Of a DNA stretch of 59,986 nt, positions 2,121 through 58,988 are shown in pieces. Position numbers and translations under genes: made by a program. The stretch lies in NCBI GenBank assembly GCA_039798065.1, contig JBDKGS010000002.1, positions 1 through 59,986 on the forward strand, read 5' to 3'. Source of the DNA: Fibrobacterota bacterium (GTDB lineage: Bacteria; Fibrobacterota; Fibrobacteria; UBA5070). The stretch's first letter is position 1. The number at the start of each line of letters is the position of its first letter. The notes beneath the pieces are model-generated. The model made no database searches. It saw only the letters and a list, made by a program, of their open reading frames with translations, and was not told where the DNA came from.

Positions 2121-4883
<2,763 letters not shown>

Positions 4884-4897
4884 AGGGTTTTACTCCT

Positions 4898-6418
<1,521 letters not shown>

Positions 6419-6428
6419 TGCGTTCCTC

Positions 6429-6953
6429 TTACGCGGAAAGCAGGGCCCTGCGGGCCTGGTTCAGCTGGTTGTTGGCGGTGGCGTCCAAAACGGTGTCGCC
6501 CAATCTCACGCGGAATCCACCCAAAATGGAGTCGTCGCTAGCCTGCGACAGCTCGACCTTGGAGCCGGACCGGGAGAGGGATGTTTCGAGGGTCTGGACC
6601 TGTGTGCTGGAAAGGGCGCTCTTCGCGAACACCACGCCTCGGACAATTCCTGTCCGCTGCTCGTGCAGCGAAAGCAATGCGCCGGCGATGTCGGCGATTT
6701 CGCCCAGACGGCGGCGTCCGGCGAGCAACCCCACGAAACGCCCTAAGACAGAATCTGTCGCAGGGTTTCCCATCGCGGCAAGAAGAGCCGAAGCCCTCTT
6801 GGCGGCCGGGACCGTGGAATCGGAAAGACGCGTGGTCACGTCCGACGGAAGCGCGGCCAACGACTTGAACAGCGGGAGGTTCTTCTCCAGCTGGCCCGAA
6901 GACGAAAGCGTCTCCAGCAAGGCCTTGGCGTATCGAGGTGCGGCGTTGGCCAT
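6429..6953 (-). CDS. atpH: F1 ATP synthase delta subunit (OSCP)
   Basis: 174 aa from the internal ATG ([14 protein letters not shown]), whose last base is also the first base of the atpF stop. The longer 326-aa ORF is an overlap artefact. The C-terminal '[21 protein letters not shown]' is typical. Confidence 0.85.
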
Positions 6954-48637: not shown

Positions 48638-50392
48638 TCACTCCCTGGGATCCCAGTCCTCGCGTTCGGGGAAGATGTTCATGTGGGAGAGCTGGTCGCC
48701 AAGCCGGGTTCCGATGATCGCAGCGGAGATCAATCCACGCAGCGAGTCCAGCAGCATACCGCGGCGCGAAACCAGTTCCAGGAAGGCGAATCCCAGCTGG
48801 GTCTCGCCGAAGAAAAGCGGTTCCACCACGAATGCGCAGCGAAAGGGGCGGTCGTGGACGATCCGCCGCACGATGTCCTGCTTGGACAGATTCCGGTCGT
48901 TGTCGCCGGGGGGGCGCCGGGTGTTGGCGTGGATGGACAGATGCAGCCGGTGGGTGTCGGCCACCGCCTCTTCGCCGCGCAGGACCAGGTGCAAGCTGGT
49001 GATCTTGAGCGTGGTGGCCTCGCGGGCCAGCACCTCCACCACCTGTTCGACTTCGGAACAAGCCGAGAGCAGAAGTCCGGTGGTGTGGACCTCGCGGGCC
49101 CATTGCTGGGTCTGCAGACCTTGCAGGCCCATCTGTTGCAGGGCACGTTCGTGCGAAAGAATGCGCAACTGGTGGATCAACCCCTCGAAGGCGGTCGAGA
49201 GGGAGGGGTCTTCGGGAAGGAAAGGCAACGAGGCCGTGCGCAGGTTGGACAACAGAATCTGCCAGCGATCGAAACTGTCGGTCGGGGTTTTTGCGACGTC
49301 GAGAAGATACTGGAAGCGCAGTCGCGTGGCGGTGTCCTCGCCTGCTTGGCAATCCGACCAGATCGCGTCCACCAGGTCCTTGAGAAACGGGGAGAAGCGC
49401 TGCGAGGGTAGCGTCGATTCGCACTCGATCTGGGTGGCCTGGAGGTGTTCGCGTCCCCCGAAAGCCCCTTTGCTACCCTGCCAATTTCTGCCATGATGGA
49501 TGCTGCGTCTTGCCGCGGCCATCGAGTCGCTGGTGCATCCGCACGAACCGCGGTAGACCGGTACGCTCGAAACCCGCGTCGTTGCCGCGACGGCATGGCC
49601 GTCGATGCGAGCCAAGGCCAGCTGGATGGCGTTGACGCCTTGTTCGTACACGGGCTGGTGGATGGTGGTGAGGGCGGGCGGAACCCACAAACCATCCTCG
49701 ATGTTGTCGAATCCTGTCACGACCACATCATCGGGGATCCGTTTGCCTCGCTCGCGCAGAGCCTCCATGGCCCCCAGCGCCATGTTGTCGTTCGCCGCCA
49801 CCAGCGTGTCGAAGGGGGTGCCCGCGTCGAGAAGCTTCTTGGTGGCCTCGCGCGCCAGCCCGAAATCGAACCGGGCCTCGGCCTCGAGTTGGGGGGAAAG
49901 CGCCAGTCCGTGTCGGGACAAGGTTTCGACCAGCGCCTCGCGGCGCTCCGTGGAATCGGGGTTGGAGGCGGTGCCGCCCAGGAAGGCGAAGCGCGTGCGA
50001 CCGTGCTCCACCACAAGGTGCTCGACAAGATCTGTCATGCCCGAGCGGTTGTCGACCAACAGCGACGGGTGTTTGGGGTGTGTGAAGCCGACAGTGAGGA
50101 TGGGTGTGGGCGCGAACCGGTCCAGGAACGCGGTGATGCGCTCCAGGTCCGAGATGTCGTTGAAGATCGACGACAGCACGATCAACGCGTCGAATTCCGA
50201 CAGGTCGATCAGCTCGAAGCAGGAGTTGCGCATGCGTTTGTTCTGGTCGGCGGAGTCGATTGCCCCGCCGTTGAAGCTCACGAGGTCGCAGTCTTCCTCG
50301 GTGGCCGCCGCCTTCATTCCCGACCAGAAAGAGTATTGGTAGGTGCCGACCAGATCGTTGGTCAACAATCCGATCAAAGGACGCTTTTCCAT
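48638..50392 (-). CDS. LacI-type periplasmic-binding-fold (sugar-binding) domain protein without an HTH, plus a ~270-aa C-terminal domain of unknown function
   Basis: 584 aa from 'MEKRPLIGLLTNDL'. 'AFLGG...ERREA', 'AANDNMALGAMEAL' and 'IPDDVVVTGFDN' match the LacI/PBP core, but no N-terminal DNA-binding HTH is present. Confidence 0.7.
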   Translation of the reverse strand: MEKRPLIGLLTNDLVGTYQYSFWSGMKAAATEEDCDLVSFNGGAIDSADQNKRMRNSCFELIDLSEFDALIVLSSIFNDISDLERITAFLDRFAPTPILTVGFTHPKHPSLLVDNRSGMTDLVEHLVVEHGRTRFAFLGGTASNPDSTERREALVETLSRHGLALSPQLEAEARFDFGLAREATKKLLDAGTPFDTLVAANDNMALGAMEALRERGKRIPDDVVVTGFDNIEDGLWVPPALTTIHQPVYEQGVNAIQLALARIDGHAVAATTRVSSVPVYRGSCGCTSDSMAAARRSIHHGRNWQGSKGAFGGREHLQATQIECESTLPSQRFSPFLKDLVDAIWSDCQAGEDTATRLRFQYLLDVAKTPTDSFDRWQILLSNLRTASLPFLPEDPSLSTAFEGLIHQLRILSHERALQQMGLQGLQTQQWAREVHTTGLLLSACSEVEQVVEVLAREATTLKITSLHLVLRGEEAVADTHRLHLSIHANTRRPPGDNDRNLSKQDIVRRIVHDRPFRCAFVVEPLFFGETQLGFAFLELVSRRGMLLDSLRGLISAAIIGTRLGDQLSHMNIFPEREDWDPRE

Positions 50393-50490
50393 GCGGTCCA
50401 GCTTATCATCAAGCGGGAAACCAGTCCAGGATTTCCGGTTCCTGTCGCCAGGAGATCCGATCGGTCGATCGGATCCGGCCATCGGGCGAT

Positions 50491-51363: not shown

Positions 51364-52566
51364 GTGGAACTCGGAACCCCTTTGTCGTCCGCCGCCGTGC
51401 GCGTCCTGCTTCTCGGTTCCGGCGAGCTGGGCAAGGAAGTCATCATCGCGTTGCAGCGCCTGGGCTGCGAGACCATCGCCGCCGACCGCTACGAGAACGC
51501 TCCGGGCCACCAGGTGGCGCACCGCTCCCATGTCCTGGATATGACAGATCCTGTCGCCATCCGCAAGCTGGTGGAGCTGGAGCGCCCGCATCTGATCGTG
51601 CCGGAAATCGAAGCCATCGCGACCGACGAGCTGGTGCGCATCGAGGCCGACGGAATCTGTCAGGTAGTCCCCACCGCCCGCGCAGCGCAGCTCACCATGA
51701 ACCGCGAAGGCATCCGCCGCCTGGCCGCCGAGACGCTTGGGTTGGCGACCTCGCCGTACAAGTTCGCGAGCAGCTTGGATGAATTGCGCGCGGCGGTGGA
51801 TGGGGGAATCGGGTATCCCTGCGTGATCAAGCCGACGATGTCGAGTTCCGGAAAAGGACAGTCGGTGGTGCGATCGGCCGATGCCCTGGCCGCTGCGTGG
51901 GACTACGCCGCCAAAGGTGGTCGCGTGGACAGCGGACGGGTGATCGTCGAAGGGTTCGTGGATTTCGAGTACGAGATCACCATGCTCACGGTCCGGGCAA
52001 AATCTGTCGATGGCTCGGTGGAGACGCATTTCTGCGAACCCGTGGGGCACGTGCAGGTGAACGGCGACTACGTGGAGAGCTGGCAGCCGCAGCCCATGAG
52101 CGCCTTGGCCCTGGAACGCACCAAGGAGATCGCGCACAAGGTCACCGAAGCCTTGGGAGGCCGTGGACTGTTCGGCGTGGAGTTGTTCGTGAAAGGCGAC
52201 ATGGTGTGGTTCTCGGAAGTGAGCCCTCGTCCGCACGACACCGGGCTCGTCACGCTGGGCACGCAGCGCTTGTCGGAATTCGAGCTGCACGCCCGCGCCA
52301 TTTTGGGATTGCCGGTCGACACGTCCTTGCGTCGCCCCGGTGCCAGCGCCGTGATCTACGGTGGCATGGATGCGAAGGCGGTGACGTTTTCTGGCGTGGC
52401 CGATGCGTTGGCGGTGCCGGAAACCGACATCCGTTTGTTCGGCAAGCCCGAAGCGTTCCCCAAGCGCCGCATGGGCGTGGTGGTGGCCACGGCAGATTCT
52501 GTCGAACAGGCTCGCGAGCGGGGGAAGAGCGCGGCGGGGAAGGTGAAGCCGGTCGCGAAAACCTGA
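51364..52566 (+). CDS. purT: Formate-dependent GAR transformylase PurT
   Basis: '[24 protein letters not shown]' aligns with the E. coli PurT N-terminus, and the ATP-grasp core follows. A GTG start at 51364 sits 7 nt after AAGGAG. The ORF opens at 51253. Confidence 0.9.
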
Positions 52567-52570
52567 CCTT

Positions 52571-53662
52571 TCACCTGGAAGGGATTAGTCCGTAGCTCGA
52601 TGGGTTGTCGAAACGCCTGAATAACTTCAGGTAAGCTCGTCCTAACTCGGTCAACGAGGCATTTTCGGCAGGGGAATCGTATAGGCCCGTCACGGTGGGA
52701 TCCATCGCGGTCGTTATTCCTAACGCCTTCAAATAGGCGGATGTGCCGGTGAGCTTGTCGTCGGTACCGGATTGCTTGTACCAGAACCACCTTCGTATCT
52801 CGGGTTGGGTGGCGAAGTATTCGACCATGCGGTTCATCGAGTTGATCTTGTCCGAGGTCGTTGCCTCGTTGTTCATGATCCCAAATTCGTCGATCCAAAC
52901 TTTCGTAGGTGGGAAACCAGCCGATTTCGCGGTCTTGATGAAGTTTGCGTAGGCGGAAATCGGATCGGTTTTCCAGGAGCCCAGTGCGGCGGCAACGAGG
53001 TCGTTGGCGATCCCGGCGCCTTTGATCTGGAGGATCTTCAAGTTGGCATCGTAGACGTGGACGTTGAACGCGTCGATCTTGCCTCCCAATGCGGACAGCT
53101 TGGAAAGGAATTCCGAGGTCCACGTGTCGTAATTCTTGAGATTCAATCCATAGGCCTTGAGCAAGAGCGATGCGAGAGTGCTGTTTGCTGGTTGAAGTCG
53201 AACCAAGAGGATCGCTCCGTTGTGGACTACGCATTCACCGCAATTGAGCTGGCCTGCCGAAGCTCCTTTGATGTAGTCGTAGTACATCTTGTAGGCCTGG
53301 GCATAATCGGATGGTGAAAGGTACGGGTAGGCGTTCGGTTCGTTTCCGATCGCGAAATGGATTTCCCGCTCCCCCGCGGTCTTTGCCGCGTTGATGAGAG
53401 TTTTGATCGCTCCCTTCTCTGCATCGAAAACGGATTTGTATTGCGCCAGATCGGCTTGGAGTGTGCCGTTCCAGGGAACGAGCGGATTGGCGTCGAGCTT
53501 TCCGACGGTCCAAAATTTGTTCTTCCCCACCGCTTGGGGGTAGGAATAGTCGCCGTTGTACTGCCGGTACCAAGGAAAATCGGGTGATAGTCCGTCGGTG
53601 CCGAACCTCGAGTCGGGGTGGAGAGCGGCGATCGCGGATGCGAGGAAGGCGAAAGCGAACAT
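52571..53662 (-). CDS. Secreted clan GH-A glycoside hydrolase-like protein
   Basis: 363 aa with a signal peptide. 'FAIGNEPN' (acid/base Glu) and 'VWIDEFG' (nucleophile Glu) have the spacing typical of (beta/alpha)8 GH-A enzymes. Confidence 0.65.
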   Translation of the reverse strand: MFAFAFLASAIAALHPDSRFGTDGLSPDFPWYRQYNGDYSYPQAVGKNKFWTVGKLDANPLVPWNGTLQADLAQYKSVFDAEKGAIKTLINAAKTAGEREIHFAIGNEPNAYPYLSPSDYAQAYKMYYDYIKGASAGQLNCGECVVHNGAILLVRLQPANSTLASLLLKAYGLNLKNYDTWTSEFLSKLSALGGKIDAFNVHVYDANLKILQIKGAGIANDLVAAALGSWKTDPISAYANFIKTAKSAGFPPTKVWIDEFGIMNNEATTSDKINSMNRMVEYFATQPEIRRWFWYKQSGTDDKLTGTSAYLKALGITTAMDPTVTGLYDSPAENASLTELGRAYLKLFRRFDNPSSYGLIPSR

Positions 53663-54135
53663 GGGGGAAGTCCGGGCCAGGGGTTGGGGACAGAACGAGG
53701 GAGTTTACAGACGGCCGGGGGCGGCGCATCCATGCATGTCAAAATACGGCAATACGACAGGAAATGTCAAGATGATTCGATCCTGTTTCAGAGGCGACAA
53801 ATTTTGACTTGAAGTCTTGAAATTCGTTCTGACCCGTCGTAGACTTCGAATCCAACTCTCCAGGACGACAAGGCAATGCGATGTGCACTGCCAGTGCTTG
53901 GTGTTGTTTTCCCTCCACCTCACACCCGTTTCCCCCACCTCGATTCCCGAGCTAATCCGAAAAGCTGACTTTACAATCAGGTAATTGTCATTGTTTGCAA
54001 TATGAATCAGCGCCACATTCAATTGTGGCGCTTGCTTTGGTATGCCCTCAATGCAATCGATATCAATGGCGAATTGCTATTGATGTTTAAGTGGTTTTGC
54101 GTAATTGTTGGGCGAAAATTCATTGAATAAAAATG

Positions 54136-54163
54136 TTGACTTTTCCGTATTTCGCCATAAATT
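54136..54163 (+). promoter_or_regulatory. Candidate sigma70-type promoter
   Basis: TTGACT (54136-54141), a 16-nt spacer, then TAAATT (54158-54163), about 85 nt upstream of the 54246 start. This rests on sequence resemblance only. Confidence 0.3.
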
Positions 54164-54245
54164 AATCATCAATCTTCGCAGCCAGCAATGAATTCGAAAC
54201 CAAGATTTGGTTGCGGAGTTAAACCACGCATAATCGGAGTATAAA

Positions 54246-54662
54246 ATGAAGAACTCTTTCATGAAAATCGCTGCATTGACCATTGTTGCTGCTGGAATGG
54301 CGTCGGCCACTTGCGCTGATGGAAATGTCTGGCAAGTTCTTAACACTCGTGTTGGGTCTATCGGTGTAAATCAAAACGCCAACGTGAACATTACTCCAGT
54401 TGCGGCGCCTGGGCAAACTGCTCAAATTCAAAATGTCAACACAAGTCCTTGGGGACCTCTTACCGCTTGGACCCCGAAGCAACTCTGGGTTTCTTCTGGT
54501 GCAACGTCCTATGGTGGAACTTCGAATGTTGGCCGAGTTGGACAGCAGTCCTTGCTTCAGCAGGCATTCCAATTGGGAAGTAACCTGACGAGCATTACGT
54601 TTTGCAATTGGAAAGAAGTTCCAGGAAGTTTTGAAATCATCAATGTGACGGTCGGAAACTGA
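54246..54662 (+). CDS. Small secreted protein (138 aa, 2 Cys after the signal peptide)
   Basis: GGAG RBS and signal peptide 'KIAALTIVAAGMASA'. The mature part is Asn/Gln/Thr-rich. Confidence 0.65.
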   Translation: MKNSFMKIAALTIVAAGMASATCADGNVWQVLNTRVGSIGVNQNANVNITPVAAPGQTAQIQNVNTSPWGPLTAWTPKQLWVSSGATSYGGTSNVGRVGQQSLLQQAFQLGSNLTSITFCNWKEVPGSFEIINVTVGN

Positions 54663-54676
54663 AACTTTGATTTCTG

Positions 54677-54720
54677 TTGATCGCCTTTAAAACCATAAAG
54701 GCGATCAATCCATTTCTTCT
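54677..54720 (+). terminator. Rho-independent terminator
   Basis: A 13-bp perfect stem TTGATCGCCTTTA / TAAAGGCGATCAA with a 6-nt loop, followed by TCCATTTCTTCTT. Confidence 0.75.
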
Positions 54721-54737
54721 TGGTGGAGGTGTTAGAG

Positions 54738-56489
54738 ATGAGAAAACATAAGGCGTTGCTTCTCCTGTTAGGTGCAGCGATGATGCTCCCGGCGCATCTC
54801 CATGCAGCTGGAGCAGGTTGTTCGGAAGATTACACGGGGTTTGGAGAATATACTGCACGATATACCAAAACGGGTCAGCAGTATACGAATACCTATACCG
54901 GGAACGCGATTCAATCATCGCCACGAGCCGATGGAATCCAGGGCTATACGACGTATTATCCCTATGGGACCAAAACAACGACTACGAATATTCGGTATAC
55001 GCGTTTCGTGTACGGCCTGAAAGTTACCTATACTGAAGTTTTGGGGGTTGAAGTTGCAACTGGTGCAAGTATGCGAGGGCGATACTGCTTGGAGGAGACC
55101 TCCTCTGCCGCACCCCCTGTCGCTGCTCCCAGTATGAAGCAATGTACTTCGTGCGGAGATGCGGCGTACGGGTGGCAGGTCATGATCGTCTCGTCGAGGA
55201 ACATCTCGACCGATCTGATGAAGGCACCGATCGTCGTTTCCCAGGGCTTCGATCCCGCCTTCACATCGGACAAAGAATTCTCTTTCACGGAATTCGAAAA
55301 TTCGTTCAAGGCAGTCTATCCTGCATCGGGTGCGAACAGCCCTAGCTTCCCCGCCAACAATGCACTTAAGCGGTTGGTAGGCGAAGGTTTCGATGTCGTC
55401 TTCGTAAAGTACAACAACCCTTCGCTGAATATTCGGACGCAAGGCAAGAATTTCCTCGAGGCGATGAATTGGGTTGCTAGCAAGTCGGTTCCGAATAGCT
55501 CCATGTACCTGGTCGGCCCAAGCATGGGTGGACAGGTCGTGCGTTCCGCCTTGATCGAGTACTACGACCAGAAGGCAGCGAACAATTTGGCGGTGGCCAA
55601 GACGCGCATCAACGGTGCGTTGTTGTTCGATTCGCCCAACCTAGGTGCCTCGATTCCATCGTCGGGTTTCTTCGCGATGCGCAAGCACAGCGATTTCGAT
55701 GCTACAGCGAAATACATGACGGAGAATATGAAGGCAACAGCTGCGCAACAGATGCTCTATCGCGCTGCGAGCGGTGACAGCTGGACGACGAATTCGACCG
55801 CAGCATCGTTCTATGCCGACTTGAATTCTCCCAACAACATTCGGAAGATGACTCAGGATGGCAAGATCGACATTGTTGCGATCTCGAACGGAAGCGCAGC
55901 GGGCGTTTCGCAGGGAATTCCTGTAAACACGACATACTTCTCAGGAAACGATCAGCTGTACCGTCAAGTGATCGATGTCCCGGTTCTTGGCAAGTTCACC
56001 CTCACCGGAACCATGTCCACAGCGATGACAACCGCCTCGGCTAGCTCCAACAGTCCGTTTACCTGGGGGTTAACGTTTGCCGGAATGCCTGCCAGCTATG
56101 ACAAAACTTACCAGACTGGAGATTCTTACCTGGAGAATTCTCCAGGAGGCTACCGAGGAACGTTTAAGCAGTTGACTGATGCATTGTCGTCAACCTATTC
56201 GAGAAATGTCACACTGAATACCTCGGTGGTCAACCACAGCTTCATCCCCACGATCAGCTCGCTCGGTCTGACTGCGCGCAGTCTGGGGAATAGCAGCGAC
56301 CTCAATCGTGCAGTGGTTGCGGTGGGCAACAAACCTCAGGAAAGCTCGATCTTCTCTCGGATCTATGCTCCTCAGGTGAATCAACCCCACGTCGCGTTGA
56401 CGTACGAAAACGCTGGCTGGATGCTCCAGGAAATCAAGTGGGCATTCGCCAAGAAACAGTATCTCGGATTCACTTCGGTTCTGAATTAA
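54738..56489 (+). CDS. Secreted alpha/beta-hydrolase (lipase/esterase-like)
   Basis: ATG behind GGAGGTG, signal peptide 'ALLLLLGAAMMLPAHLHA' and nucleophile elbow 'LVGPSMGGQV' (GxSxG). Confidence 0.65.
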   Translation: MRKHKALLLLLGAAMMLPAHLHAAGAGCSEDYTGFGEYTARYTKTGQQYTNTYTGNAIQSSPRADGIQGYTTYYPYGTKTTTTNIRYTRFVYGLKVTYTEVLGVEVATGASMRGRYCLEETSSAAPPVAAPSMKQCTSCGDAAYGWQVMIVSSRNISTDLMKAPIVVSQGFDPAFTSDKEFSFTEFENSFKAVYPASGANSPSFPANNALKRLVGEGFDVVFVKYNNPSLNIRTQGKNFLEAMNWVASKSVPNSSMYLVGPSMGGQVVRSALIEYYDQKAANNLAVAKTRINGALLFDSPNLGASIPSSGFFAMRKHSDFDATAKYMTENMKATAAQQMLYRAASGDSWTTNSTAASFYADLNSPNNIRKMTQDGKIDIVAISNGSAAGVSQGIPVNTTYFSGNDQLYRQVIDVPVLGKFTLTGTMSTAMTTASASSNSPFTWGLTFAGMPASYDKTYQTGDSYLENSPGGYRGTFKQLTDALSSTYSRNVTLNTSVVNHSFIPTISSLGLTARSLGNSSDLNRAVVAVGNKPQESSIFSRIYAPQVNQPHVALTYENAGWMLQEIKWAFAKKQYLGFTSVLN

Positions 56490-56505
56490 TCGAAGCTCTA
56501 TGAGT

Positions 56506-56542
56506 GCCGACCCGCCGTTCTCGGCGGGTTGGCCTTTTGTTT
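56506..56542 (+). terminator. Rho-independent terminator
   Basis: GCCGACCCGCCG-ttct-CGGCGGGTTGGC followed by CTTTTGTTT. Confidence 0.75.
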
Positions 56543-56573
56543 GAAAACCACTCTGGCAAAGGAGTTTTTGACG

Positions 56574-56921
56574 ATGTTCTCAAAGTTTGGAAAACACCTT
56601 GTATTCGGATTTCTGATCGTTACAGCAGGGAACGCATTTTCCGCCTGTTGGGAAACCAAGCGAGTAGTCAAATATTGGACAGGCAACTACAAGACGCATC
56701 GGTCTTCGTCCGAGCCTGCTTTTGTTGTCCAACTCGATGGGATTCAAAATTTCAGGTATATCGTCCTTGATGGAAGCGACCGATCGAATCAGCAAGCTGC
56801 CATCGTTGTGAACGCCTACAACAAGATGAAGCTCCTGTCTGTTTGCACCTCGGCCAACAAGAACTCCACGGCTTCAGATGCATGGAGTGAGGTTGATCTA
56901 ATCGGGGTTGGAGACTACTGA
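56574..56921 (+). CDS. Small secreted protein (115 aa, 2 Cys after the signal peptide)
   Basis: ATG 9 nt after AAGGAG, with signal peptide 'LVFGFLIVTAGNAFSA'. The longer ORF start at 56529 lies inside the upstream terminator and is rejected. Confidence 0.6.
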   Translation: MFSKFGKHLVFGFLIVTAGNAFSACWETKRVVKYWTGNYKTHRSSSEPAFVVQLDGIQNFRYIVLDGSDRSNQQAAIVVNAYNKMKLLSVCTSANKNSTASDAWSEVDLIGVGDY

Positions 56922-57826
56922 TGCTTACATCTGTCCTGGCAGCGATCGTCACTTGGATTGCCTCGGCGCCAGCAAAGGTTTTTTTGTTGTCGGGACAGTC
57001 GAATATGTCTGGGGCCGGATGGGTGTCGGAAGTCCAAGGCTGGAAGAACCCAGGACTAGTCCAATTTATGTCATCCGGAGAAGGCAATCCTATTCTGAAA
57101 GGACCAGAGATGCTTTCGCCTGGAAAGGCGAACGAAGTTGCCGAGAATTTCGGACCAGAAATCGGAATTGCGGAGAAACTCGCCGCTAGGTTTCCCTCGG
57201 ACGACATCGTGCTTGTCAAGCTCTCCTGGGGAGGCACCGCGTTGCAAGGTGCACCAACCGAACCGGTATGGCTCGATGGCGCCCTGTACACCGATTGGTT
57301 CATACCGCAGTTGACGACGGCCTTCCAAAGGCTTGGGGACAAAGCAAAGTTTCCCAATGGATTTGTGGTGTCCGGAATTTTTTGGATGCAAGGTGAATCG
57401 GATGCTTCATTCTTTGAGAAGTCAGGTTTCGGTAATTACTCGTCGGCATTGAAAAAATTCGTGCAGGATCGACTCCGGGTCGAGTTGGCAAGGATTCCCG
57501 GTACCGGTTCATATATCGAGGCGCCGTTCGTGTATTCCTTGATTCGACCACACTGGTTGTATGCGACCATGATTCAAAGAGAGCAGCGAATGGCGCAATA
57601 CAAGATTCCGGCATCGAAGTGCGTCACGGTTGGCAAGACTGCCGAGGTCTACGCGTTTACTGATCCAGTCAACGTCAATCTCGGCTACAACCTCAACCAT
57701 TACAATGCGAGAGGCATCCTAGAAGTTGGAAGGGGAATGGGTGAAGCGATGGTGAAGTTCCTCGATGGTGATCGAACCTATGGATGTCCAATGATTGCTG
57801 CGAATAAAGGGCTTTTCGTCGAATAG
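56921..57826 (+). CDS. Sialate O-acetylesterase-like carbohydrate esterase (SASA/DUF303 type)
   Basis: 301 aa with 'VFLLSGQSNMSG' (catalytic Ser block) and 'IFWMQGESD'. The start overlaps the preceding stop (TGATG). Confidence 0.7.
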   Translation: MLTSVLAAIVTWIASAPAKVFLLSGQSNMSGAGWVSEVQGWKNPGLVQFMSSGEGNPILKGPEMLSPGKANEVAENFGPEIGIAEKLAARFPSDDIVLVKLSWGGTALQGAPTEPVWLDGALYTDWFIPQLTTAFQRLGDKAKFPNGFVVSGIFWMQGESDASFFEKSGFGNYSSALKKFVQDRLRVELARIPGTGSYIEAPFVYSLIRPHWLYATMIQREQRMAQYKIPASKCVTVGKTAEVYAFTDPVNVNLGYNLNHYNARGILEVGRGMGEAMVKFLDGDRTYGCPMIAANKGLFVE

Positions 57827-57833
57827 GACGAGT

Positions 57834-57953
57834 AAGCCCGAAGTGTTCCCCAAGCGCCGCATGGGCGTGATCGTGGCTACGGCAGATTTTGTCGAACAGG
57901 CCAGCGTGCGCGCGAAGAGCGCGGGGAGGAAGGTGAGGCCGGACAGAATCTGA
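57834..57953 (+). pseudogene. Displaced relic copy of the purT 3' end
   Basis: Roughly 85% identical by eye to 52444-52566. It is still in frame ('[23 protein letters not shown]...') with its own TGA, but has no upstream purT body. Confidence 0.8.
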
Positions 57954-57965
57954 CAGACCGATTCG

Positions 57966-58502
57966 CTACCTGAGCAGCGATTTTCGGATCTGCAACCTCG
58001 CACGATGCAACCTGGCCTTGGCGCTTTCGCGGGTGAGGCTCAAGGCTTGCGCTACCTCGCCGATGGGGGTCTCCTGCACATCGACCTTAAGGACCATCTC
58101 CCGGTAGTGGTCGGGCAATTCCTGCAAGGCACGCGCGAGGTCCAACCGCAAATCTTCGGTGGGGAGTTCGGAAAAACGCAGATCGTCCTCGATGGACTCG
58201 ATGCCGGTTTCCGTTCCCCGCGCGCCCCGGCGCATCAAGCGCAGGCATTCGCGTTTGACCACGGTGAACAGCCAACTGGTGAGGGCCCCCAGCGTTCGAA
58301 CCCCGCCTACCTTGCGATACAACAGCCACAGCGATTCCTGCACGGCGTCGTGGATGTCGGAAACGTGGCAGGTGGACCTGGCGAACCGGCGAATGTCGGG
58401 TTGCGCCAAATCCAAAAGGGCAAGGAGAGCCTTCTCCTCGCCCCGCTGGGCCGCCTCCAACAGGCTTTCGGAAATCCGATTGGTGGCGTTCCGGGAGCTC
58501 AA
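57966..58502 (-). CDS. ECF-type RNA polymerase sigma factor
   Basis: 178 aa with region 2 'IHDAVQESLWLLYRK...WLFTVVKRECLRLMRR' and region 4 'LPDHYREMVLKVDVQETPIGEVAQALSLTRESAKARLHRAR'. Confidence 0.9.
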   Translation of the reverse strand: MSSRNATNRISESLLEAAQRGEEKALLALLDLAQPDIRRFARSTCHVSDIHDAVQESLWLLYRKVGGVRTLGALTSWLFTVVKRECLRLMRRGARGTETGIESIEDDLRFSELPTEDLRLDLARALQELPDHYREMVLKVDVQETPIGEVAQALSLTRESAKARLHRARLQIRKSLLR

Positions 58503-58705
58503 CGTTTATCGAGCTTTCGTCCCACCAGGGCGCACATCGGGCAGAAGCCGAAGAAACCTGTCATGCCGGTAAAGATACCGGTCGCGAGCAGGGACCCGGC
58601 GATGAGCGGGGGTTGGTGACTCACCAGCCCCACGACGGCGATGGCGACTCCGGCGACAACACGCAAGGCATATTCCCAAGCGGGGAGATTTTTGGTGTAG
58701 AACAT
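58499..58705 (-). CDS. DUF2892 (YgaP-like) small membrane protein
   Basis: 68 aa with 'R...G......G........L..TG..G.CP.Y/C' ('TGMTGFFGFCPMCALVG'). 4-nt overlap with the sigma factor gene. Confidence 0.7.
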   Translation of the reverse strand: MFYTKNLPAWEYALRVVAGVAIAVVGLVSHQPPLIAGSLLATGIFTGMTGFFGFCPMCALVGRKLDKR

Positions 58706-58885
58706 GGGTATGGATTTCTTTCGAAGAAGGAGTGGGAGAGGGAGCGCGCCATGTCAGCGGCCTTCGAAAGAGCAGAGGAGGCAAAAGGGGCGAAAAGGTT
58801 CGCGGAATTTTCGAAAGGAAGCGAATTGTGATAGCGGCCGCCTGGATGGAAAGCTTCTTGTTTTCCTTTTTGCGCCAAACAGAGT

Positions 58886-58936
58886 GCCCACACCTTGTAA
58901 AACACAATCGTCAATTGTGTTTTACAAGGTGTGGGC
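58886..58936. repeat. Perfect 23-bp inverted repeat with a 5-nt loop
   Basis: GCCCACACCTTGTAAAACACAAT-cgtca-ATTGTGTTTTACAAGGTGTGGGC. No flanking T-run on either strand. Confidence 0.9.
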
Positions 58937-58988
58937 CTATCGCTAGCTAGGGGTGTGGTGCCCGAGCCATCTCCGCCAAACTCACGCG

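Follow-up and report, generated by a model that had tools for sequence, protein, structure and literature searches.

The stretch of DNA analysed here, referred to below as the window, is the whole 59,986-bp contig C2 of a metagenome-assembled genome (MAG) from an uncultured member of the Fibrobacterota (417 contigs, 82% completeness, 4.4 Mb, GC content 0.605), and we are concerned with a 5.3-kb low-GC island inserted at the 3' end of its purT gene. This gene (51382..52566, + strand) encodes a formate-dependent GAR transformylase of 394 amino acids, with the start taken as in JGI contigs. It is intact: the Pfam matches (ATP-grasp, 6e-53; PurT_C, 1.5e-25) span the open reading frame (ORF) up to 6 residues short of its end, and the protein displays 78-90% amino-acid identity to the PurT sequences of relatives from the same genus. 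The island is followed by an ECF sigma factor gene on the opposite strand (57966..58502, - strand; Pfam Sigma70_r2 and r4_2), which is the convergent right-hand neighbour of purT in two strains with an empty site, designated S4 (contig L083) and S5 (L085).

The terminal part of purT is present twice in the window. A preliminary description, made from the sequence of the window, had reported diverged direct repeats of about 120 bp at this position, and alignment confirmed them as a repeat of 109 nt with 88% identity (52444-52552/57834-57942; E-value of 1.5e-34 in a restricted search), which can be extended to 111 nt (52444-52554/57834-57944) with 14 mismatches and an overall identity of 87-88%. 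The longest identical run between the two copies is 25 nt (52456-80/57846-70), the remaining identity being patchy, and exactly two copies of the purT tail are found across the 4.4-Mb MAG. The upstream copy (tail A; 52444..52554, + strand) is part of the working gene and is native-like, with 3 differences in 111 positions with respect to strain S3 (L079). The repeat had been thought to extend to the end of purT, at 52566. This holds as far as 52554, but the last 12 nt of the gene, GCGAAAACCTGA (52555..52566, + strand; encoding AKT*), are novel and non-homologous: in the alignment with S3, S4 and S5, homology stops at 52554. The native purT ending consists of ...CCGGTC followed by AGATTCTGA (RF*), and this ending is replaced by GCGAAAACCTGA in the purT gene of the window, such that the left junction of the island falls within 52555..52566. 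The native form, AGA[T/A]TCTGA, is kept in the window solely behind the downstream copy (tail B; 57834..57944, + strand), which is followed by the native-type ending AGAATCTGA and a 12-nt spacer leading to the ECF gene (57945..57965, + strand), as at the empty sites. Tail B has kept the reading frame and has a TGA of its own (57951-53), 12 nt ahead of the ECF stop codon (57966-68), as previously described, and the proposal that the ECF side represents the original context is borne out by the native ending and native spacer behind this copy. The number of mismatches per 111 nt to the single tail of S3, S4 and S5 is 3-16 for tail A and 15-23 for tail B. Because tail B carries about 12 private changes, most of them non-synonymous, versus a single private change in tail A, it is a non-functional copy, drifted by about 10%. 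Tail A carries the new ending, and tail B the native ending and spacer; the end of the working gene has therefore been replaced, and the native end displaced together with tail B.

The composition of the DNA between the two tails sets it apart. GC content drops from 0.62-0.65 to values of 0.41-0.55 inside the block, and the inserted DNA (52567..57833), which is absent from S4 and S5, has a GC content of 0.51, versus a genome mean of 0.605 (standard deviation of 0.036 in 1-kb windows). GC content at third codon positions (GC3) ranges from 0.44 to 0.70 in the cargo genes and from 0.73 to 0.82 in the neighbouring genes. The GC plot and GC3 values are thus both in agreement with the AT-richer island initially proposed. 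The block comprises three transcription units. The first consists of a gene for a predicted secreted glycoside hydrolase (GH) of the GH-A type (52571..53662, - strand; Glyco_hydro_cc, PF11790, 7.8e-13; GC3 of 0.70), which converges on purT, the stop codons of the two genes (52564-66 and 52571-73) being only 4 nt apart, as first noticed. The homologues of this enzyme are solely proteins of 65-68% identity encoded on related MAG contigs. It is separated from the second unit by an AT-rich spacer of 583 nt (53663..54245, GC content of about 0.42) with divergent promoter-like sites, in which no gene remnant was found. The second unit begins with sm1 (54246..54662, + strand), encoding a small predicted secreted protein of 138 amino acids with a hydrophobic N-terminus, behind which lies a terminator-like hairpin (54676-54709). 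It continues with abH (54720..56489, + strand), the product of which is a predicted secreted lipase/PGAP1-like alpha/beta-hydrolase of 589 amino acids with a GPSMGG motif; a strong terminator (56506-56533) follows. The start of abH is ambiguous: depending on the pipeline, the protein has 435, 583 or 589 residues, the longest version starting from TTG at 54720, and an ATG at 54738 giving a signal-peptide-like N-terminus (MRKHK...). The third unit contains sm2 (56574..56921, + strand), encoding another small predicted secreted protein with a hydrophobic N-terminus (115-126 amino acids, depending on the start), and a gene for a SASA-type (SGNH-like) carbohydrate O-acetylesterase (56921..57826, + strand; PF03629, 5e-17). 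This cargo had been recognised in the preliminary description, and Pfam supports the assignments, with only weak matches for abH (cutinase and Abhydrolase_3), the relatives of which carry PF05057 or PF07819. A gene for abH was found in 4 of the 208 genomes of the class. Searches of PDB sequences with the three enzymes yielded no matches. To judge from these domain assignments, the probable role of the cargo is an accessory one, in the deacetylation or degradation of polysaccharides.

The Pfam and tRNA checks agree with the earlier statement that the island has no integrase, transposase or tRNA: no Pfam integrase, transposase or resolvase was detected in any island ORF (52555-57953), including those of the spacer, and there was no tRNA in the locus. 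The island therefore has no recombinase next to an attachment site, as would be expected inside a prophage, an integrative and conjugative element (ICE) or an integrative and mobilizable element. Its duplication of 111 nt likewise differs from the <15 bp expected of a DNA transposon or an insertion sequence composite, and no terminal inverted repeats were found at its ends, the sole candidate being a weak 21-nt match of 76%. Three genes for tyrosine recombinases (PF00589) are present in the MAG, on contigs C200, C11 and C49, none of them linked to the purT locus. A third copy of the purT tail, which might serve as the attachment site of a helper, was not found in the 82%-complete MAG, and searches of IMG/VR with abH and SASA profiles retrieved nothing close.

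Both junctions of the island are 100% identical in at least five other datasets (JGI 3300043426, 3300047477 and 3300046821; Logan SRR35181656 and SRR35185577) and, because these independent assemblies reproduce them, they are not an assembly artefact. Relatives at the species level (the 12 GTDB representatives of the family) have a purT gene with no adjoining island and no compositional step, but neither of its flanks is syntenic and the ECF gene is absent, so these genomes are uninformative concerning the empty site. Strain-level contigs were therefore essential to the comparison; they were retrieved by means of the 90% protein clusters to which the neighbouring ECF and TPR proteins belong, a metagenome scan with the ECF protein having yielded distant matches only. 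With the window as reference (S1, island present), five other states were distinguished. In S2 (L073; sample 3300013833), the right flank of which is about 5% diverged, the island is present and identical over the stretch compared (56662-57968). In S4, with about 90% nucleotide identity, and S5, with 2 mismatches in 332 positions beside the junction, the site is empty and has the same layout (GSP-synthase, YgaP, ECF, 12 nt, purT), with purT and the ECF sigma gene converging over the 12-nt spacer. The occurrence of this empty purT/ECF junction, with the spacer kept, confirms the insertion at the purT 3' end with a replacement end that had been proposed for the window. In S3, the purT of which is 94.5% identical, a GH43-CBM6 gene replaces YgaP-ECF, and in S6 (L084; 91-95% identical), another, non-purT sequence lies beside the ECF gene. 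The GH43-CBM6 gene (L079 6773-8673, versus window 57966-58708) has a normal GC content and is located beside the purT stop; no purT-tail remnant was found beside it. These comparisons demonstrate that the 5.4-kb block (52555-57944, plus the tail copy) is a horizontally acquired, strain-variable insertion about 120 nt before the end of purT. As strains S1-S6 differ in state at this position, the purT 3' flank is a variable locus, with the purT/ECF junction a hotspot of gene-content change.

The comparison with S2 also provides information about the movement of the island. There are no mismatches between S2 and the window over the 1307 positions from 56662 to 57968, which cover sm2, the SASA gene, tail B and the spacer. 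From 57969 onwards, the two sequences are about 5% different, with 24 of the 28 differences in the ECF gene located at third codon positions. A four-strain allele table and mismatch profiles place a genealogical breakpoint at 57964..57968 (CGCTA), at the ECF stop codon: up to 57963, every variable site places the window with S2, and from 57969 it groups with the empty-site strain S5. S5 is the closest empty-site relative of the window, from which it nevertheless differs at 23 of the 111 positions of tail B and 5 of the 24 positions of the spacer, and the window purT just upstream of the tail is likewise not S5-like. Since tail B and the spacer are unlike those of S5, the window lineage acquired the block in its entirety (at least 52413 to 57963) from a different lineage, as an allele. 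The island of the window strain was thus imported as an allele block, rather than gained by site-specific integration into the strain's own purT, and its identity in S2, the flank of which is about 5% diverged, shows that it was transferred recently, in one piece and without an integrase. The right flank is otherwise 99.4-99.6% identical between S1 and S5, except at 58301-58988, where divergence is 2.5-5% and S5 resembles S2; this patch is probably a separate small recombination tract.

Related cassettes were found at the tails of other genes. Among 5.8 billion proteins, the close homologues of the cargo are all encoded on related high-GC Fibrobacterota contigs, and all in low-GC DNA. In the first of these loci (L039; ENA ERZ27248716 k141_307313), the tail of the Tex gene is duplicated (9093-9283/12443-12633; 191 nt, 96% identity, E-value of 4e-78), and the island at the end of this gene (3.3 kb, 41-48% GC) encodes an sm1-like protein, an abH-like protein (45% identity) and a 196-aa ORF. 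The homologue of sm1 is 26% identical and is located upstream of the abH homologue, as in the window. Tail A of this locus is followed by a terminator supplied by the insert, and tail B carries an allele resembling that of a related genome (G011) and is followed by G011-like downstream sequence. The Tex gene of L039 is 83% identical to that of G011 at the nucleotide level, and G011 keeps GlgA-Tex without an island, thereby providing an empty site. Four of the five internal differences between the two L039 tails are concentrated in two codons (AP versus PQ), which looks like a difference between two alleles rather than drift. In the second locus (L065; Logan SRR24566909_76891), the tail of a DUF4423 gene has been copied (1765-1804/7409-7448; 40 nt, 82.5% identity, E-value of 1.5e-7) on either side of a 5.6-kb cassette encoding a SASA protein (57% identity, the closest homologue of the window enzyme), an abH-like protein (27%), a thermolysin-like M4 peptidase and a 138-aa protein. 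The orientation of this cargo relative to the tails is opposite to that in the purT case, and the GH gene of this contig (67% identity) does not belong to the insert but is resident next to it. Contig L063 has the same flanks as L065, with the cassette absent. The working DUF4423 gene has gained new terminal codons, as has purT.

No motif common to the purT, Tex and DUF4423 junction sets was discerned by eye, and a DUF4423-tail remnant that would link the purT island to an L065-like source was sought in the AT-rich spacer of the window, with no significant alignment. Distant abH homologues (about 30% identity; G038, G193 and G047) had neither an island nor repeats. In the window MAG, in which there are about 49 low-GC islands of at least 1.5 kb (GC content <0.535) across the contigs, self-BLAST and a targeted test revealed the tail-duplication signature in 1 of 49. 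From the two homologue loci examined, the signature appears to go with the cargo family of the purT island. Two of the low-GC islands of the MAG contain P4-like integrases (C49 11731-13002; C11 25414-26775). On contig C75, a low-GC islet (3695-6948, GC content 0.42-0.46) encodes three secreted proteins, one of 707 amino acids and two small ones, resembling the purT island in its combination of small proteins with a large secreted protein; a 61-nt direct repeat (114-174/8983-9043; 93% identity, 8.8 kb apart) surrounds it. This repeat, together with candidates on C10, C12, C113 and C173, was rejected as a tail-duplication island, as the gene-tail geometry was absent.

Two readings of the duplicated tails were considered. 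Tail B could be a homology arm borne by the element, with a crossover at its 3' edge, which would fit the identity between S1 and S2; this reading was judged less likely. The alternative, in which tail A is the replacement and tail B the displaced copy, is more likely, because the native ending and spacer follow tail B, and because tail A of L039 is a non-native allele.

How, then, did the island reach purT? A class of insertions with long target duplication has been defined by an insert of less than 20 kb with no mobility gene, flanked by direct repeats of more than 30 bp that both align to the single copy present where the site is empty (Furuta, Abe & Kobayashi 2010, NAR 38:2428, PMC2853133); part of the earlier literature on this class is Nobusato et al. 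2000 (ref. 37 of PMC2853133). The purT insert is 5.3 kb long and has no linked mobility gene, its 111-nt repeats both align to the single tail of S3, S4 and S5, and the empty-site strains S4 and S5 are similar to the window on both sides of the insert. The cargo consists of secreted hydrolases rather than the restriction-modification systems for which the published screen was designed, but this cargo is a property of the screen and not of the architecture. On balance, we consider it probable that the purT island arose by recombinase-free insertion with long target duplication and is now spreading between strains as a purT-linked block. Foreign DNA would have been joined at a break near the end of purT, with the target copied on both sides and no recombinase involved. 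The working purT has kept a full tail A, with a four-codon ending supplied by the insert, and the decaying tail B is left, with its native ending, beside its original ECF neighbour. Later spread between strains would have occurred by recombination, with the purT body as one arm and tail B plus the spacer as the other, an arrangement that would render the island portable to any strain with a purT gene.

Several points weigh against this interpretation. No experiment demonstrating the mechanism was found in the literature examined. At the breakpoint at the ECF stop codon, the haplotypes share identity blocks of only about 5 nt; this DNA is a poor substrate for RecA-type recombination, and would better suit a join based on microhomology or on a specific site. 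No left edge was found for the exchanged block, nor a left junction for S2, exact-protein look-ups being exhausted and the purT clusters having no further members. The signature was present in both of the close cargo-homologue loci versus 1 of the 49 low-GC islands, which hints at a cassette-specific cause rather than a generic accident. Finally, the functions of the cargo are predicted from Pfam matches, the PDB sequence searches having yielded none.

The layout described as attL/attR-like in the preliminary description stands, but an integrase origin is unproven and partly contradicted by the import of the island as an allele block. It is possible, albeit doubtful, that the purT tail is the attachment site of an integrase-less satellite that is inserted and excised by a tyrosine or serine recombinase encoded elsewhere, on a prophage, ICE or island acting as a helper, the Tex and DUF4423 cassettes making use of other helpers. 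Such an element would account for the replacement gene end, for the recent movement of an integrase-less form and for a breakpoint lying within 5 nt at a fixed landmark, in DNA ill-suited to homologous crossover. It would also be consistent with a signature tied to the cargo family of the purT island and not to low-GC islands generally, and two P4-like integrases are available in the MAG. Nevertheless, no helper having the purT tail as its site was detected, this sequence occurring just twice in the MAG and IMG/VR providing no close matches, and there is neither a long identical core, the longest run being that of 25 nt, nor a motif common to the three junction sets. Related cargo is found in this architecture at three genes, and these three targets, with both cargo orientations, would demand three recombinase specificities. 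Neither tail B nor the spacer belongs to the window's own lineage, unlike the prediction for a fresh site-specific integration, and the features defining the recombinase-free class are all present.

A bolder proposal, which we consider rather unlikely, is that these islands form a family of small 'tail-replacing' cassettes of high-GC Fibrobacterota, recombinase-free or served in trans, that would use an undescribed mechanism to target actively the terminal 40-190 nt of arbitrary host genes. The target-tail copy carried by the cassette would guide insertion and preserve the gene, secreted-hydrolase modules would be the characteristic cargo, and the 5-nt breakpoint at the ECF stop would be the true end of the element.

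The preliminary description also envisaged an island decayed in place, in which a larger prophage or ICE, having used its own integrase at the purT tail, lost all but the useful cargo beside one att site. The repeats at the gene 3' end are indeed classically att-like, the low-GC composition is mosaic (GC3 of 0.44-0.70) and tail B is old, to judge from a private divergence of about 10%, but such decay is improbable, because the integrase-less form has itself been exchanged between strains: the present 5.4-kb form recurs unchanged in S2, the flank of which is 5% diverged, and so moved after any decay. Moreover, the L039 tails are 96% identical, yet that cassette is already reduced to 3.3 kb and three genes, and the purT island contains no pseudogene remnants from a phage or an ICE. 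Finally, although deletion between 111-nt direct repeats is mechanistically easy and the genome is a MAG of 417 contigs, it is highly improbable that the arrangement is ancestral and was lost from relatives by repeat recombination, or that the contig is chimeric, given that at least five assemblies reproduce both junctions, that species-level relatives have no island by purT and no compositional step, that the purT tail and spacer of the empty sites constitute a different allele and not an A/B hybrid, and that GC3 sets the block apart.

The purT island is a natural example of accessory genes entering a genome without a visible mobility gene and without harm to the housekeeping gene targeted, for which occupied and empty alleles within one species, an identical island on diverged backbones and sister events at other genes are all available. 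For polysaccharide-degrading Fibrobacterota, it shows that secreted esterase and glycosidase modules circulate as portable units within and between related lineages.

The surroundings of the island have other variable features. A gene for a 614-aa periplasmic-binding protein (48638-50482) lies between the TPR and histidine kinase genes of the window and is missing from S3, in which the TPR gene abuts the kinase gene, making this a second indel between strains at a distance of 2 kb from the purT island. On the other side, between the YgaP-like and GSP-synthase genes, there is an inverted repeat (58886-58936) with perfectly matching arms of 23 nt and a loop of 5 nt. It is 91-94% conserved in S3, S4 and S5, of which S3 lacks YgaP-ECF. 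It may be the other edge of the variable segment, or a terminator.

The purT island can be compared with several known systems. Integrative islands of the tRNA/tmRNA type and tycheposon-like cargo arrays share with it a replacement 3' end, a displaced distal copy and AT-richer cargo. The purT target is, however, protein-coding, there is no recombinase, the two copies are much more diverged and the displaced copy in the window strain is not the tail of its own lineage. The cis-mobilizable elements (CIMEs) at the fda 3' end of Streptococcus thermophilus are integrase-less and flanked by att sites. Like these elements, the purT island has no integrase in cis, its repeats originate from a housekeeping gene, at the 3' end, and this gene remains functional, and mobilisation in trans is conceivable. 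The repeats of CIMEs are short near-identical att cores (about 27 bp) matching a known ICE integrase system, whereas no helper or core was found for the purT island and the targets vary between sister cassettes. Homology-facilitated illegitimate recombination, which de Vries and Wackernagel reportedly described in 2002 for natural transformation, relies on homology on one side, with an anchor in a conserved gene, and on a join of microhomology scale on the other, and would fit the 5-nt CGCTA window; unlike the event at purT, its normal outcome is the replacement or deletion of recipient DNA, without duplication of the anchor.

The closest counterpart is the class with long target duplication. 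The published cases have repeats of 46 to about 420 bp; they are frequently located at gene 3' ends, frequently deviate in GC content and come mostly from naturally competent species. They are restriction-modification systems, and DNA breakage by these systems themselves is suspected, the mechanism being unknown (PMC2853133). The purT island resembles them in its size of less than 20 kb, the lack of a mobility gene, repeats of more than 30 bp, a deviant GC content and a location at a gene 3' end. It differs from them in that its tails are diverged (87%), with one decaying, in the occurrence of related cargo at three gene tails and in the population data for exchange of the block between strains. 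It also carries secreted hydrolases and no nuclease, in contrast to the published restriction-modification cargo. The purT island appears to fit a published but poorly understood class, from the cases of which it departs by its hydrolase cargo, and this nuclease-free cargo argues that DNA breakage by the cargo itself is not required for long target duplication.

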